A DNA stretch of 48,644 nt from Escherichia coli (GTDB lineage Bacteria > Pseudomonadota > Gammaproteobacteria > Enterobacterales > Enterobacteriaceae): NCBI RefSeq assembly GCF_016903815.1, contig NZ_CP069971.1; one strand, given 5' to 3'. The translations under genes were made by a program, and so were the position numbers. Below are positions 3,275-40,001 of this stretch, in pieces. Under the pieces are notes generated by a model, which did not search any database, had not been told where the DNA came from, and saw only the letters and a program-made list of their open reading frames with translations. Every line of letters starts with the position of its first letter. Positions within the stretch are counted from its first letter, which is position 1.

Positions 3275-3400
3275 AAAACCACGATATGTGGTATTAAAAC
3301 CACATATCGTGAGTTTTTCAATGGGCAAAACAAAAAATAACCTTCTATTTGTGGTCCACCTCTCGTCTTACCATGTGAAAACCACTAAATGTGGTAATGT
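3275..3400. promoter_or_regulatory. divergent promoter/operator region with ACCAC-N5-GTGGT operator sites
   Basis: Cores at 3278-3292 (ACCACGATATGTGGT), 3299-3313 (ACCACATATCGTGAG, the mirror of the first) and 3381-3395 (ACCACTAAATGTGGT), plus a GTGGTCCAC element at 3351-3359. Confidence 0.6.
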
Positions 3401-3432: not shown

Positions 3433-4089
3433 ATGAAAAGCAACGACGAGAACATCAAGAAAGAAATAGGTCTGCGCATTCAGACTCTACGGAAACAATC
3501 CGGCATGACTGCCGGAGATCTCCAGCAAGTCACTGGAATAGGCTTAAGCACCTTGCAGAACTATGAGGCCGGATTAAGACAACCATCTATACCTGCCATC
3601 AAGAAAATCGCGCACGCCCTGAAAGCATCAGCGCCTTATATCGCGTGCTTAACAGATAACCCGTTCCCACCCCAGAATACTAACGCTCCTGTTATTCCTG
3701 GGCTTGTAGCTATAAAAAATGACATAGCATCGCACGCCGGAGAAAAGCCAGTGCTGGCGATAGAACAGGAGATTCTACGAAGCAAGAACATCAACCCATC
3801 GTCTCTGTCAGTTCTCCAGAGCAACGATGAGTTAATGTCACCAACAATATCCCCTGGCTCCCAAGTCCTGATTGATACAGACGATACAGAGATTCATGAG
3901 GGGATCTATGCCCTTGAAGACAGAAATGGCCTGGTTGTTTTGAGGCACTGTAGAGTCATACCGGGTGACAATGCTGTTATGCTGTCAACCGAAAGGGATG
4001 CTGAAATGAACACTAAGCATCTGAATAACGAGGAATTTAAGCGTTATAAAGTTCTGGGCCGCGTAGTTAGTGTTGTCAACTGGTTATGA
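3433..4089 (+). CDS. CI-like repressor (N-terminal HTH, C-terminal LexA/S24-type autopeptidase domain)
   Basis: 218 aa; HTH GLRIQTLRKQSGMTAGDLQQVTGIGLSTLQNYEAG; C-terminal ...VVLRHCRVIPGDNAVMLSTERD...YKVLGRVVSV resembles S24 peptidase. Confidence 0.75.
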   Translation: MKSNDENIKKEIGLRIQTLRKQSGMTAGDLQQVTGIGLSTLQNYEAGLRQPSIPAIKKIAHALKASAPYIACLTDNPFPPQNTNAPVIPGLVAIKNDIASHAGEKPVLAIEQEILRSKNINPSSLSVLQSNDELMSPTISPGSQVLIDTDDTEIHEGIYALEDRNGLVVLRHCRVIPGDNAVMLSTERDAEMNTKHLNNEEFKRYKVLGRVVSVVNWL

Positions 4090-4131: not shown

Positions 4132-4146
4132 ACCACATTTTGTGGT
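4132..4146. promoter_or_regulatory. operator site ACCACATTTTGTGGT next to a TTGACA element
   Basis: Perfect 7-5-7 palindrome AAACCAC-ATTTT-GTGGTTT directly upstream of the 4182 ORF. Confidence 0.55.
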
Positions 4147-6468: not shown

Positions 6469-6483
6469 CCCACACTATGTGGT
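6469..6483. promoter_or_regulatory. operator-like site CCCACACTATGTGGT (ACCAC-N5-GTGGT family)
   Basis: One mismatch to the operator consensus seen between the CI-like and Cro-like genes. Confidence 0.5.
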
Positions 6484-6781: not shown

Positions 6782-6973
6782 ATGACAAACCTACCCCATG
6801 ACTATTACGTCAACCTCGTAAAGATCCTTCTCAAGAAAGCCTCATACGCCGATAAATTCCGCCTGGCTGAAATAATCGAGCGCGAAGCTATGCGCATCGC
6901 CAGCAACGATAACGCTGTTTCTGTCGCAAAAATCTCCCTCGTAACCAAAGTAGTTATGGGAGGTGCAAAATGA
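6782..6973 (+). CDS. small protein translationally coupled to the antirepressor gene
   Basis: 63 aa; its stop overlaps the ATG of the next gene (ATGA overlap at 6970). Confidence 0.45.
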   Translation: MTNLPHDYYVNLVKILLKKASYADKFRLAEIIEREAMRIASNDNAVSVAKISLVTKVVMGGAK

Positions 6974-8151
6974 AAACGCTTCCGACCGTTAACACCCTAC
7001 AGCCTATCCTGCATAACCAGATCCCCGTTATCACTACTGAACTACTGGCGCAATTGTATGGAACCGAGCGCCAACGTCTGACGAACAATTTCAATAGAAA
7101 CAAGGAACGTTTTATAGAAGGTAAACACTTTTTTAGGATAGAAGGTAAAGAGTTACGAGAGTTGAAGAACAAAAACTCTTTAAGAGTTCCTGTGAGAGTA
7201 GTTAACGAACCATCTTTAAGAGGGTTACAAATTCCCCCGAAAGTTCGCTCCCTCATCCTCTGGACAGAACGCGGGGCTGCACGTCACGCCAAAATGCTTG
7301 AAACTAACCAAGCGTGGGATGTGTTCGAACGGCTGGAAGACTGCTATTTCAGCCAGAACGCGCAAACGGCCGCGACCGTAACCGTCTCGCCAAGCAATGC
7401 TCGTGAGGTTGTTGATACGCTCAACGCCAAACCAATGTATTACGTTAAGGTGTGCAATAACGAGCCACTCACAACCTCAGCCGATGTTGCCCAGGCATTC
7501 AGCACCACAAACAATTCCATCGTTATGGCCATCGATGCGTTACGCATTCCTCGCACAGCTGCGGCGCGTCATTTCTTTAAAGAGCAACGACCGTTGGAAG
7601 GAAGCGACCGCGAAATAACAATCTATCGCATGACAAAAGACGGATTTACCTTGCTCATGGAAAGTATCGACGGTCCAAGCGTGAAGGATATCAAGCTGGC
7701 CTACATTGAAGCTTTTAACGCTATCAGCAGCGTGTTAAAGGCAGAATACGAGCGAATACTATACAACCGACTGTATCAGGAAACAAAGATTATCCGAACG
7801 GCAACAGAACATCATCGGCTATTAACGGAACCAAACTACCGCAAGACACTAATCAAAGAGTTTGACAAAGCGACGGAGAAAACTAAAGCGGCACTAAATC
7901 TACCAACAATGACTAAGGATGATGTGATATCAGCCTTACTTCTTGATCTACTCAGAAACGCCAGAGCACTTATAAGCTTTGACGAAAACCTGAATCCTCA
8001 GCTCAAGCTACTACCACCGACAGGCAAAGTAGTCGACCAGGCTGATCACAACAGCATACTCAGCGTTCTGGATGCAAACCTGCCAGCCAGGACACTACAG
8101 GAACTGATAAAAATATCTGCGGATAAACTGGCCGCAGGTGCAAAACCATAA
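6970..8151 (+). CDS. antirepressor-like protein (ORF6N/KilA-type N-terminal domain)
   Basis: 393 aa; N-terminal ...NNFNRNKERFIEGKHFFRIEGKELRELK...LILWTERGAARHAKMLETNQAWDVFERLEDCYF matches the ORF6N-type antirepressor pattern as I recall it. Confidence 0.6.
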   Translation: MKTLPTVNTLQPILHNQIPVITTELLAQLYGTERQRLTNNFNRNKERFIEGKHFFRIEGKELRELKNKNSLRVPVRVVNEPSLRGLQIPPKVRSLILWTERGAARHAKMLETNQAWDVFERLEDCYFSQNAQTAATVTVSPSNAREVVDTLNAKPMYYVKVCNNEPLTTSADVAQAFSTTNNSIVMAIDALRIPRTAAARHFFKEQRPLEGSDREITIYRMTKDGFTLLMESIDGPSVKDIKLAYIEAFNAISSVLKAEYERILYNRLYQETKIIRTATEHHRLLTEPNYRKTLIKEFDKATEKTKAALNLPTMTKDDVISALLLDLLRNARALISFDENLNPQLKLLPPTGKVVDQADHNSILSVLDANLPARTLQELIKISADKLAAGAKP

Positions 8152-9792: not shown

Positions 9793-10173
9793 TTACTTAA
9801 CGAGGAATAAAAATGGTTTATTGTTCGGCGGTGTAATCGGGGCTGGCTCGCTTTTGCTCATGCGATCAGTGTACCAAGCCAACTCCTTGTCAAAGTAAGC
9901 CTGATTAAAATAGGCCATGAATGTAGTTTCAAATCCATAACGACCGCTAATACGCAGCATCTGATTGCCGTTCTCTGTTTCCAGATATACCTGGGCACGT
10001 TCCTGATTCTCCTTCAGCCAGGTTAAAGCCTCATCGCATGAGGACACACGATACTCATCATCGTAGCCGTCATCGATGCGGCTTGAGGAAGAACGGCAAA
10101 TCACGCCAACAGAACCAGCCAGGATAGTTTGAATTTTAAGGAAAGCGTTTTTGCGGATTTTAATCATGCTCAT
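9793..10173 (-). CDS. hypothetical protein (126 aa), first gene downstream of cassette copy 2
   Basis: ORF with a GGAGA RBS supplied by the conserved leader; no family recognised. Confidence 0.5.
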   Translation of the reverse strand: MSMIKIRKNAFLKIQTILAGSVGVICRSSSSRIDDGYDDEYRVSSCDEALTWLKENQERAQVYLETENGNQMLRISGRYGFETTFMAYFNQAYFDKELAWYTDRMSKSEPAPITPPNNKPFLFLVK

Positions 10174-10285
10174 CGGGTTATCTCCGGTTTAACCAGGGCG
10201 GGTATCGCTCGGTTTCGGGTATAACCTTAGGAAATTTTTTCCCACCTGTAAAGCACTTTTTATATAAATCTATAATTATATAAAT
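10174..10285 (-). promoter_or_regulatory. conserved promoter-leader cassette, copy 2
   Basis: Identical to copy 1 over about 103 bp. Confidence 0.6.
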
Positions 10286-10374
10286 AATAGTAACTGGTGT
10301 TTTTTTAGGCGAAGCATTAAACATTTTTGTTTAGCTTATTGGCAAGGTCTTGAAAAAGACATTTCAGCAATGCT

Positions 10375-10393
10375 ATACCATTGAACATGGTAT
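10375..10393. promoter_or_regulatory. operator-like perfect palindrome ATACCAT-TGAAC-ATGGTAT
   Basis: Lies about 50 nt upstream of the 10441 start codon, next to a TTGAAA -35-like element. Confidence 0.5.
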
Positions 10394-10440
10394 CGGCTGA
10401 ATTTTGTAATTAACACATTTTAAACAATTTGAGGTGCCAA

Positions 10441-10725
10441 ATGGCTAAACAAAAATCTGAAATTGATGCTATTCGAGCATTAACAGAAGTAACAATTAAA
10501 GGTTTTGAGCAGGTTGCTCAGGCATTAGTTGATATGAGAGAAGCTCAGGGAAAAGTCGTACGAGCAACATATAATGGATTAACCTCCTCAGGAAAATCTC
10601 GCTATGTTGCATCGCTAGTAGAGGAAGTAGGATCACAAGCTGAAGTAAGCCGCATGTTAAATATCACACCAGGGCGCGTTAGCCAGCTTATGAAGTCCGA
10701 AAAAAACCGCAAAAATGGAAAGTAA
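10441..10725 (+). CDS. small protein with a C-terminal HTH-like segment
   Basis: MAKQKSEIDAIRAL...GSQAEVSRMLNITPGRVSQLMK; GAGGTG RBS; the track ORF at 10429 begins with TTG. Confidence 0.45.
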   Translation: MAKQKSEIDAIRALTEVTIKGFEQVAQALVDMREAQGKVVRATYNGLTSSGKSRYVASLVEEVGSQAEVSRMLNITPGRVSQLMKSEKNRKNGK

Positions 10726-10731
10726 ATAAGT

Positions 10732-10750
10732 AAGGCCCCAATGGGGCCTT
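10732..10750. terminator. hairpin terminator between convergent genes
   Basis: AAGGCCCC-AAT-GGGGCCTT. Confidence 0.5.
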
Positions 10751-10758
10751 ACATTATG

Positions 10759-11058
10759 TTAGACATGGAACGCTACTCGCTTTCCTGTAGGAAGCTCAAC
10801 ATCCAGGCTTAATTTGCCTCCCATAGCTTCAACGTAACGCTTTAATGTCGCCAGCTTTAAATCATTTCCGCGCTGCTCCAGCTTTGTTACTGCTGGCTGG
10901 CTTATACCCATCGCCTCAGCAACCTGTTTTTGTGATAACTGGAGTTCTTCACGCATCATCTGCAAGCCGACCTCAAGAATCATCTCATCTGCCATTTCTT
11001 TAATTCGCGCCTGGCTTTCAGGTGAACGGCTGGCAATCACCTCATCTAATGTTCTCAT
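10759..11058 (-). CDS. HigA-like antitoxin (XRE-family HTH)
   Basis: 99 aa; ...LQLSQKQVAEAMGISQPAVTKLEQ...; 1-nt start/stop overlap with the upstream toxin-like gene. Confidence 0.6.
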   Translation of the reverse strand: MRTLDEVIASRSPESQARIKEMADEMILEVGLQMMREELQLSQKQVAEAMGISQPAVTKLEQRGNDLKLATLKRYVEAMGGKLSLDVELPTGKRVAFHV

Positions 11059-11411
11059 TACTTGCTCTCCAGTGTGTTCAGATGTGCTGCAAACTCATCC
11101 TCAGCTATACGCACCAGTTTTTCATAAAACCGTTTATCGTTACTTTTGTCTCCTGCACAAAGAACGATGGCCCGGCGAATCGGATCGAACGCATAAAAGG
11201 CTCTTATCGGACGGCCAGAAAACTGAACGCGAAGCTCTTTCATATTTTTGTACCGAGAACCTTTTACGGTATCGGCATATGGCCTGGGTAACTCAGGTCC
11301 GTAAACCTGTAGCTTTTTCAAATCAGCCAAAACCTTTTCCTGAAGAGCGTCTTCTTGCTCATTTAGCCAGTCGTCAAATCGCTGGCTAAAAAGTACCGTC
11401 CACATGCTCAA
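11058..11411 (-). CDS. RelE/HigB-family toxin-like protein (Gp49-type)
   Basis: 117 aa; ...VKGSRYKNMKELRVQFSGRPIRAFYAFDPIRRAIVLCAGDKSNDKRFY... matches the addiction-module killer pattern. Confidence 0.6.
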   Translation of the reverse strand: MSMWTVLFSQRFDDWLNEQEDALQEKVLADLKKLQVYGPELPRPYADTVKGSRYKNMKELRVQFSGRPIRAFYAFDPIRRAIVLCAGDKSNDKRFYEKLVRIAEDEFAAHLNTLESK

Positions 11412-11414
11412 TCC

Positions 11415-11460
11415 TATAACCTGTAGTTTATATCACTAACTATATAACCTGTGAGTTATA
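11415..11460. promoter_or_regulatory. two TATAACCTGT(G)AGTTATA repeats upstream of the toxin-antitoxin pair (candidate operators)
   Basis: 11415-11432 and 11443-11460; the second has palindromic arms TATAAC/GTTATA. Confidence 0.5.
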
Positions 11461-12867: not shown

Positions 12868-13848
12868 TTAATGTTGGAGTGATTTCCAGGTCTTTCTTAG
12901 CCTGTTATAACGCTGCTCAACGAGGGAGCGTAAATATGCAAGGTCAGCACCAGGATACATGCCATCAGCAAATTCCTGGCTAACCTCTCTAGTGATTTGA
13001 TGACGAAGTTCGGCCTCTCCCTTTTCCTGAACAAGACGCGCAGCTCTCTCCGCTGCTTTCTGTTTTGCCTTTATCTCTCTGGCCGTCTTCCTCTGACGCC
13101 ATACATTCTCCATCTGCTCCTGAATAACAATACGCTTATAATCAGCCTCCGTTATCGCTTTTTTAAGCCGTTCGCTATTCTTCGCATTGAAGTAATTAAG
13201 TTTCTGGCTAACCGCACGTCTCCATGCTTGTTCAGTAATACCAACTGTTTCCAGCAGTTGATCACGAATCTCGATTTTCGCTGGCCAATACTGTTTATTC
13301 ACCCGATCCCAGCGACGTTCATAATCAATAAAACCTAACTCTTTCAGTTGCGACAACGCCCTTGTACAGCGCGTTATAGACTTGTTCCCAGCTTCGGATA
13401 CGGTAGACAGGCCGCAAAAATCAGCCAACGCCTCAGCACTGGCCAGAACCCGCTTAGAAATGATGTTTACATGGTGCAAAATCGCAGCAATCACAGCATT
13501 AATCGCCCGACGACGATGCTCGTTTATCCGGCGTTTCCGCTCTGACGGTTGATTAACGTAGAACGCAACCTCACACGTAAGATCACGACCATTAATGCGC
13601 TGTAAAGCATCAGATAACACCAGCGGCAGCTTGTGCGTATGGTGCTTTGGAGGCTGGAACTCCGGCGACAAATTACAAACGTAAGCTGAACGTAGAGACG
13701 GCATTGGTCTATCCATATGTTCGCTCTTGCGTCCACGGAAAACCAACGTATAATGGGAGTTGTCGAGGCGCCCATGGATTGTTGTTGTTGGTTTTCCGTG
13801 GATGTCGCAAGAAGCCCGCAGATTTATCTGCGGGCTTTTTGTTTCCAT
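12868..13848 (-). CDS. repA: replication initiator RepA (IncFII RepA-like); may include a leader ORF, with an alternative internal start near 13716
   Basis: ...CGLSTVSEAGNKSITRCTRALSQLKELGFIDYERR... resembles the conserved core of IncFII RepA1 (recalled, not searched). Confidence 0.65.
   Translation of the reverse strand: METKSPQINLRASCDIHGKPTTTIHGRLDNSHYTLVFRGRKSEHMDRPMPSLRSAYVCNLSPEFQPPKHHTHKLPLVLSDALQRINGRDLTCEVAFYVNQPSERKRRINEHRRRAINAVIAAILHHVNIISKRVLASAEALADFCGLSTVSEAGNKSITRCTRALSQLKELGFIDYERRWDRVNKQYWPAKIEIRDQLLETVGITEQAWRRAVSQKLNYFNAKNSERLKKAITEADYKRIVIQEQMENVWRQRKTAREIKAKQKAAERAARLVQEKGEAELRHQITREVSQEFADGMYPGADLAYLRSLVEQRYNRLRKTWKSLQH
13762..13840 (+). ncRNA. CopA-like antisense RNA opposite the repA 5' region (putative)
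   Basis: Plus-strand promoter TTGCGT (13727-13732), 16-nt spacer, TATAAT (13749-13754); terminator AGCCCGCAGAT..ATCTGCGGGCT + T-run at 13813-13840, antisense to the first repA codons and RBS. Confidence 0.5.
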
Positions 13849-14055
13849 ATCTGGTCATTTTCCAACCAGACACCCACAATCATAACCACGTTACGTGGTT
13901 TTAAGAGAACTCTACCACAACACTTTCGGTCATGCACGAAGTCTCTCACTGATCGAACGATAATCCACCAGTAAAAGGATCTAAATTGGATCTCGTTTTG
14001 CGAGCATCATACTACTGGCCTAACTCCAGTCAATGATGAACATAACAACACTCCT

Positions 14056-39384: not shown

Positions 39385-40001
39385 ACCTCCCCAGCCAGCA
39401 ATGCGGATACAAATCCGATATAGCTGCCATTATCATCAACATAACGAGACACCGCGCAGTCAAAACGATCCGCTTCCTCATCCGTTGCCGGGATTTTATG
39501 ACCTCCAAATGACAGGTACTGAACTTTTACGCCTGATTTGGCCTCATCCTTCTCAAATGGGATATCCATACCCTCTGTGTCATCGTAGACTGCCGCACTC
39601 AATAAGTTATCCAGTTCGCGCTGAGTAAAACCAATTGAGTCCAGAGCAAAATCATCGGCCGCAAGATCTGCAAGCTCCGCGCTTAACAACTCTTCATCCC
39701 AACCAGCATTCAGCGGAATACGGTTGTCGGCCAGACGATATGCCTTCTTCTGATTCTCCGTTAGCCCAGCCAGAACAATGCAGGGAACATCATCCATCCC
39801 CAACTGAGTGGCCGCAGCAATTCGACCATGACCAGCAATTACAACGTTGTTCTCGTCTATCAGGATCGGATTAGTCCATCCGTACTCCTGTATGCTGGCA
39901 ACAATCTGATCTACCTGCTCCACGGAGTGTGTGCGAGCGTTCTTTTCATAACCAATCAACACAGAAAGTGGTAAAGAAACCACATTAAGATGTTTTGTCA
40001 T
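39378..40001 (-). CDS. ParB-like N-terminal domain protein (paralog)
   Basis: 207 aa; aligns by eye with 36121-36711 over most of its length. Confidence 0.7.
   Translation of the reverse strand: MTKHLNVVSLPLSVLIGYEKNARTHSVEQVDQIVASIQEYGWTNPILIDENNVVIAGHGRIAAATQLGMDDVPCIVLAGLTENQKKAYRLADNRIPLNAGWDEELLSAELADLAADDFALDSIGFTQRELDNLLSAAVYDDTEGMDIPFEKDEAKSGVKVQYLSFGGHKIPATDEEADRFDCAVSRYVDDNGSYIGFVSALLAGEVC

Follow-up and report, generated by a model that had tools for sequence, protein, structure and literature searches.

Two palindromes upstream of a small helix-turn-helix gene on an Escherichia coli phage-plasmid: a family-wide candidate operator and a lineage-specific promoter sequence

A perfect palindrome, ATACCAT-N5-ATGGTAT, lies upstream of a gene for a small helix-turn-helix (HTH) protein on an Escherichia coli phage-plasmid and had been proposed, in an inspection of the DNA termed the sequence-only reading in the following, as the site of autoregulation by the product of that gene. 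In the explanation that we regard as the best and to which we give roughly an even chance, the gene product would act through another palindrome, the TAAACA element at positions 10318-10333, and ATACCAT-N5-ATGGTAT would be a symmetric core-promoter sequence specific to its lineage, serving at most as an auxiliary operator. The original proposal is not supported: sister genes encode an identical HTH without being preceded by the ATACCAT palindrome, and a TAAAC site is found family-wide instead. All coordinates refer to the window, i.e., the complete stretch of 48,644 nucleotides that was analyzed. It represents a phage-plasmid of about 48 kb with myovirus tail and head genes, an IncFII-type repA, parA and a cI-like repressor gene.

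A rare gene family in a mobile cassette

The unit under study comprises the following elements:

10284-10730, plus strand: cassette consisting of promoter, gene and the beginning of the terminator hairpin, absent from relatives of the ATCC 25922 type
10441-10725, plus strand: gene for a protein of 94 residues with a long N-terminal helix, a C-terminal three-helix HTH and the basic tail SEKNRKNGK
10730-10752, both strands: bidirectional terminator hairpin between the gene and the convergent higA, with 10 base pairs, seven of them G-C

On near-identical plasmids, the product of 10441-10725 is annotated as a hypothetical protein of 94 residues. It matches phrog_15590 of the PHROGs collection, a family of unknown function, with an E value of 5.6e-63 over residues 1-94 of the 94-position profile, i.e., over its full length; as nothing is annotated for this family, the assignment does not explain the protein any further. 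Only 12 relatives were found among 5.8 billion protein clusters, and a profile search yielded 30 cluster representatives among 1.8 billion proteins (clusters at 50% identity). The family is thus rare as well as uncharacterized, and it resides on plasmids and genomic islands. A literature search retrieved nothing on the phage, on pHW114A or on the gene family.

An AlphaFold2 model of the protein (pLDDT 92) shows one helix of 45 residues, followed by a three-helix HTH. Structural matches were confined to the HTH and led to the DNA-binding domain of KorB, to Spo0J/ParB, to sigma region 4 and to DeoR, and the structure search returned no analogue of the whole protein. The conserved family motifs are all present, namely Y44, T48, G51-K52 and R54, the HTH pattern GSQAxV..L..TPGR..QL and the tail S(E/D)KNRKNGK. 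TxxGKxR[YF] persists down to about 35% identity, as do HTH and tail, and throughout the family there is hardly any variation in the recognition helix and the tail. Searches of Pfam and NCBIfam yielded no family above threshold, the best Pfam scores being those for Sigma70_r4 (21.1 bits, cut-off 24.1) and YdaS_toxin (20.9, cut-off 30), both of which are sub-threshold. With respect to the Cro/C1 group (XRE, Pfam HTH_3), the protein has no HTH_3 match and two of 28 family members touch this model; with respect to proteins of the ParB/KorB type, it lacks the ParB/Srx N-terminal domain. A sequence match to PDB entry 8vd6 (E 4e-15) was discarded as irrelevant, the entry being a de novo designed repeat protein and the score the sum of five weak HTH-like repeats. 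Likewise, the resemblance of GLTSSGKS to a Walker A motif is a coincidence, as G46 is not conserved in the wider family.

Of 5426 complete E. coli genomes, 23 carry the cassette, and it is plasmid-borne every time. In relatives of the ATCC 25922 type, a shared stretch of 110 bp (10174-10283) is directly joined to a different terminator and higA. A version with 83% identity has the same higBA pair as its neighbor in two further places, the 28-kb conjugative plasmid L002 and the metagenome contig L017. Altogether, 21 loci were collected, stemming from enterobacterial plasmids, Serratia, Rahnella, Pseudomonas, Stenotrophomonas, Rhodanobacter, Chromatiales, Alteromonas, Methylococcales, Photobacterium and metagenomes. 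Gene neighborhoods are otherwise unrelated and range from the phage-plasmid, the conjugative plasmid, a 5-kb ColE1-type plasmid and a Serratia plasmid, where the gene is adjacent to kfrA, to a Pseudomonas element carrying type IV secretion genes, a site immediately ahead of trfA and islands on chromosomes. Where the sequence-only reading had suggested a third, separately regulated circuit, the part that stands is a self-contained, separately regulated unit within 10284-10730, missing from ATCC 25922-type relatives, and the comparison of loci speaks for self-regulation as well; the part that found no support is the palindrome as the autoregulatory operator.

The cassette and its relatives show additional features. 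An AT-rich palindrome with arms of 9 bp, TTTATATAA-N8-TTATATAAA (10259-10284), ends exactly at the left junction of the cassette as defined by comparison with ATCC 25922-type plasmids, and its arms measure 11 bp in L002. A replicon of 32 kb (NZ_CP024829.1) is a deletion derivative of the phage-plasmid that has no annotated cI-like repressor or parA and keeps the cassette, higBA and repA. In the locus L042 (1348-2534), only 2 bp separate the family member from the downstream gene for the replication initiator TrfA, and a TAAAC-like site between promoter and Shine-Dalgarno sequence hints at control of plasmid replication in that element.

Palindromes and candidate promoters upstream of the gene

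Between the left junction of the cassette and the start codon, five elements were located:

10318-10333, unstranded: palindrome TAAACA-TTTT-TGTTTA, probable operator of the gene product, equivalent to the distal site of distant homologues
10350-10379, plus strand: candidate promoter P1 with -35 TTGAAA (10350-10355), a spacer of 18 bp and -10 TATACC (10374-10379)
10375-10393, unstranded: palindrome ATACCAT-TGAAC-ATGGTAT, overlapping -10/+1 of P1 and carrying the -35 hexamer of P2 in its center
10381-10410, plus strand: candidate promoter P2 with -35 TTGAAC (10381-10386), a spacer of 18 bp and -10 TGTAAT (10405-10410)
10431-10436, plus strand: Shine-Dalgarno sequence GAGGTG, 4 nt before the ATG

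The TAAACA palindrome, 45 bp upstream of the ATACCAT palindrome, is the only perfect TAAAC-N6-GTTTA site in the 48.6 kb of the window, and its arms are invariant among close variants. A palindrome of this type or a close variant is carried by all of the 18 loci scanned, i.e., the first 18 of the 21 collected. The 3.6 kb of upstream DNA from these loci contain nine perfect sites and the 112 kb of background contain none; when up to one mismatch is tolerated, the respective counts are 19 and four. In a longer, non-enterobacterial subfamily there are two sites, starting at -96 and -73 from the ATG and therefore 23 bp apart, and in distant homologues a -35 element (TTTACA or TTGACn) begins within the proximal site, 12 bp from its start, with a good -10 element 17 bp further on. 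Two Photobacterium loci (L032 and L033) feature two or three TTAAC-N6-RTTAA palindromes about 45-100 bp upstream, replacing TAAAC-N6-GTTTA, and the recognition helix of the encoded proteins begins differently (APR or SAR vs. PGR), which may reflect co-variation of protein and operator. Since the TAAAC site travels with the gene through unrelated contexts and the recognition helix is nearly invariant, we infer that this site is the operator of the gene product.

The region around the TAAACA site (10316-10344) is complementary to the start codon region (10435-10463) at 23 of 29 positions. The match is improved by the Gln-4 codon CAA, which reads CCA or GCC in the six aligned variants differing there. 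Functional long-range pairing was rejected, as the RNA fold is not exceptional and the match weakens both in the closest variants and in L002/L017; its source is an extra TAAAC-like half-site within codons 2-5.

The spacer of P1 carries a TG at 10371-10372 (TGcTATACC). In the alignment, the layout of P1 is common to L002 (TTGAAA-18-TGaTAGCAT) and L017 (TTGAAC-18-TGaTAGGAT), both of which have good extended -10 promoters with scores of 8.5-9.5 in a consensus scan. In the window, the -10 hexamer of P1 is without the final T and fails such scans, and under strict settings neither P1 nor P2 passes, both being non-consensus. The stretch 10316-10372 is nearly invariant, with two variable sites among 57 in ten close variants. 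P2 is a putative promoter that is proposed from its sequence only; its -10 element reads TACAAT in five of the ten aligned close variants, the exchange of GT for AC at 10406-10407 preserving a match to consensus at five of six positions. The presumed transcription starts would lie near 10386 for P1 and near 10417 for P2. The ATACCAT palindrome covers the last five bases of the P1 -10 hexamer and extends to about +8, and it is located 48 bp ahead of the ATG at 10441.

In agreement with the sequence-only reading, the palindrome is perfect and occupies exactly 10375-10393. It remains the single match in the window even when two mismatches are allowed. Inverted repeats of this class (perfect arms of 7 bp or more, spacer of up to 12 bp), on the other hand, occur 80 times in the window vs. 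about 32 times in mononucleotide shuffles, and seven of the 80 have a spacer of 5 bp. When dinucleotide composition was preserved, at least one such repeat turned up in 23% of the shuffles for the 157-bp region preceding the gene and in 35% for the whole intergenic region of 267 bp. The palindrome is therefore at chance expectation, and its position alone could make it interesting. The same intergenic region contains ATACC/GGTAT four times vs. about 0.5 expected, in a count that was made post hoc, and two copies of CGGGTAT, 17 bp apart (10198-10221), are found in the leader of the divergent gene for a protein of 126 residues (9793-10173, minus strand).

As for its distribution, the ATACCAT palindrome is confined to about 23 near-identical phage-plasmids of E. 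coli, E. fergusonii and E. albertii. Among the 21 loci collected, it is absent from all that lie outside this clade, including the sister genes of L002 and L017, the products of which have the same HTH and C-terminal tail as that of the window. The surrounding segment of 73 bp (10352-10424) was compared by BLAST with plasmid and phage collections and matched only the clade of the window, and import of the promoter segment from elsewhere was rejected on this basis. Between the window's clade and L002/L017, the approximately 60 bp from the -10 element to the Shine-Dalgarno sequence are the least conserved part. Among ten close variants, one of the 14 arm positions varies (10392 A>G in two plasmids, resulting in ATGGTGT), and eight of 68 positions vary in the surrounding 10373-10440, corresponding to a background of about 12%. 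This gives no sign of extra constraint on the palindrome within the clade, albeit at low power, as the variants differ too little for a judgment on 14 bases.

Possible alternative roles of the ATACCAT palindrome

The alternative closest to the original proposal holds that a dimer of the 94-residue protein binds ATACCAT-N5-ATGGTAT and represses its own promoter, the palindrome serving either as the only operator or as a clade-specific replacement for a lost proximal TAAAC site. We consider it unlikely, even though the palindrome sits on the -10/+1 region of P1 and around the -35 hexamer of P2 and the proximal TAAAC operator has disappeared from the enterobacterial lineages. In three sister lineages, moreover, the half-site ATGGT[AG]T recurs near the promoter, with a copy whose first base is exactly 23 bp downstream of that of the distal operator, i.e., in the ancestral proximal slot:

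L002, 1547-1553: one ATGGT[AG]T copy
L017, 596-602 and 608-614: two ATGGT[AG]T copies
L016, 136-142: one ATGGT[AG]T copy

The upstream frequency of the motif is about 80 times that of the background when the two copies of the window are included, the sole natural arm variant (ATGGTGT) conforms to the same pattern, and the gene product is the only plasmid-borne factor common to the replicons concerned. Taken together, promoter position and recurrence of ATGGT[AG]T provide a hint that the palindrome has a function. On the other side, ATACCAT is unlike TAAACA, and half-sites are spaced by 12-14 bp vs. 11 bp from center to center. The L002 and L017 proteins manage with an identical HTH and no such palindrome, and in an unbiased scan of 6-mers CATGGT ranked only fourth after three operator-derived words (corrected p about 0.27). 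In addition, the distance from the center of the palindrome to that of TAAACA amounts to 58.5 bp, which is not a whole number of helical turns. That ATGGTRT opens a tiny upstream ORF (Met-Val...) was rejected: a Shine-Dalgarno sequence is lacking, and L002 and L017 have the motif upstream of their promoter.

The sequence-only reading had also described the palindrome as unrelated to the ACCAC-N5-GTGGT operators of the replicon. These sites are distributed as follows:

3278-3292, 3299-3313, 3381-3395, 4132-4146, 6469-6483, 13885-13899 and 39958-39993: ACCAC-N5-GTGGT sites

They cluster in a divergent region beside the cI-like repressor gene (3433-4089; HTH_3 and S24 peptidase), and others precede an ORF6N/Rha antirepressor-like gene (6970-8151) or lie 37 bp before the IncFII-type repA (12868-13848, minus strand), so that one repressor may control lysogeny, the antirepressor and plasmid replication. 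The cores of the sites are conserved in a Salmonella relative at 76% identity. The statement that the two are unrelated could not be upheld, as the N5 spacing is the same and ATACCAT differs from a real half-site, ATACCAC in the right arm of the site at 3278, at the innermost base only. Both share the 5-bp spacer, inverted arms, an ACCA/TGGT core and a promoter location. One conceivable role of the palindrome is that of a weak or variant operator for the cI-like repressor, the presumed ACCAC binder, by which the acquired cassette would come under the lysogeny circuit: spacing is equal, four of five core bases per arm agree, no other sequence in the window comes closer to the palindrome than the 3276 site, and real ACCAC sites are likewise found at promoters (immunity region, antirepressor-like gene and repA). 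We nevertheless judge this improbable. The innermost C/G, which is invariant in all real ACCAC sites including those of the Salmonella relative, is replaced by T/A (ACCAT/ATGGT), which renders binding by the same protein doubtful, and the A-rich outer flanks (AAA/TTT) are missing. Furthermore, the window is rich in two-mismatch matches to ACCAC-N5-GTGGT, which make up 22 of the 29 found when up to two mismatches are allowed, and the 32-kb deletion derivative keeps the cassette without an annotated repressor gene.

Still more doubtful is a site for a regulator of the host or another regulator, e.g., of the GntR/FadR type. In most variants position 10373 is a G, whereas the window has a C; the exchange of C for G creates a palindrome of 12 bp, ATGGTATACCAT, together with a third ATGGTAT half-site, and gives TGGTATACCA, a pattern like that of GntR/FadR operators. 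The latter may resemble operators of the GntR family (TnGTnnACnA; UxuR/ExuR-like TTGGTATACCAA). The C at 10373 breaks the pattern in the window, and the motif is short. By far the least probable role is that of an RNA hairpin, an attenuator or terminator, in a long 5' leader originating further upstream. When folded as RNA, 10368-10400 reaches -9.4 kcal/mol (z -2.7), but the hairpin was not reported by the terminator scan and no U-tract abuts its stem, P1 and P2 would both start transcription inside or after it, and it is absent from sister lineages.

A role as HigA operator was rejected, as the higBA promoter carries two unrelated palindromes:

11415-11432 and 11443-11460: TATAAC-N6-GTTATA palindromes overlapping the TTGAAA-17-TATAGT promoter of higBA (10759-11411, minus strand)

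These are presumably the HigA operators. Like the ATACCAT palindrome, they are perfect, overlap a sigma-70 promoter and belong to the same gene cluster, 1 kb away; unlike it, they are present twice and differ in sequence and spacing.

Probable self-regulation of the cassette

In the explanation that we favor, with the TAAACA palindrome as the site of action, 10441-10725 would represent a small self-contained cassette for a DNA-binding protein of the HTH type. In distant homologues, the right arm of the proximal site forms the -35 hexamer TTTACA, and a dimer bound there would block RNA polymerase and thus bring about negative self-regulation. The enterobacterial copies, including that of the window, retain the distal site only, centered 27 bp upstream of the -35 element TTGAAA, and the ATACCAT palindrome probably arose in a promoter-proximal segment of about 60 bp that diverged from the sister lineages. 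Several observations speak against this explanation. The sole TAAAC site of the window is located upstream of the -35 element and centered near -60 from the presumed P1 start; because of this location, repression by occlusion is not obvious in the window and activation would be possible. P1 and P2 both deviate from consensus in the window. In addition, the ATACCAT palindrome sits exactly on core promoter elements, as a real operator would, and its half-site ATGGT[AG]T returns near the promoter of three sister lineages. On balance, self-regulation of the gene through the TAAAC site appears plausible.

Small autoregulated HTH repressors such as KorA and KorB of IncP plasmids, ArdK of R388 and those of the Cro/cI type have palindromic operators that overlap their own promoters. 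The 94-residue protein is similar in being small and borne by mobile elements and in its C-terminal HTH of the KorB/ParB/sigma region 4 fold, and its family resembles them in the tandem palindromic sites at its own promoter, the proximal one of which overlaps the -35 element in distant homologues. It is unlike KorA in its reversed architecture, with the long helix first and the HTH last, and it differs from these repressors in that all Pfam matches are sub-threshold, conserved partner genes are lacking and no further sites are present on the replicon.

A more far-reaching idea, which we regard as rather unlikely and put forward tentatively, is that the family represents an undescribed class of solitary, mobile, self-regulating HTH cassettes with a fixed promoter containing two operators, in which lineages of the E. 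coli type replaced the proximal operator by ATGGT[AG]T, the reported palindrome being the version of the phage-plasmid. If true, operator turnover would rewire the cassette after its move to a new replicon.

Nothing in the cassette suggests a new regulatory principle, and for now it would be premature to treat the ATACCAT palindrome as a third operator family in its own right. Tests of self-regulation of this gene should address 10318-10333 as the first target and the palindrome at 10375-10393 as the second. With its probable operator and promoter layout, a rare gene family has now been defined in a form that makes it easy to study.
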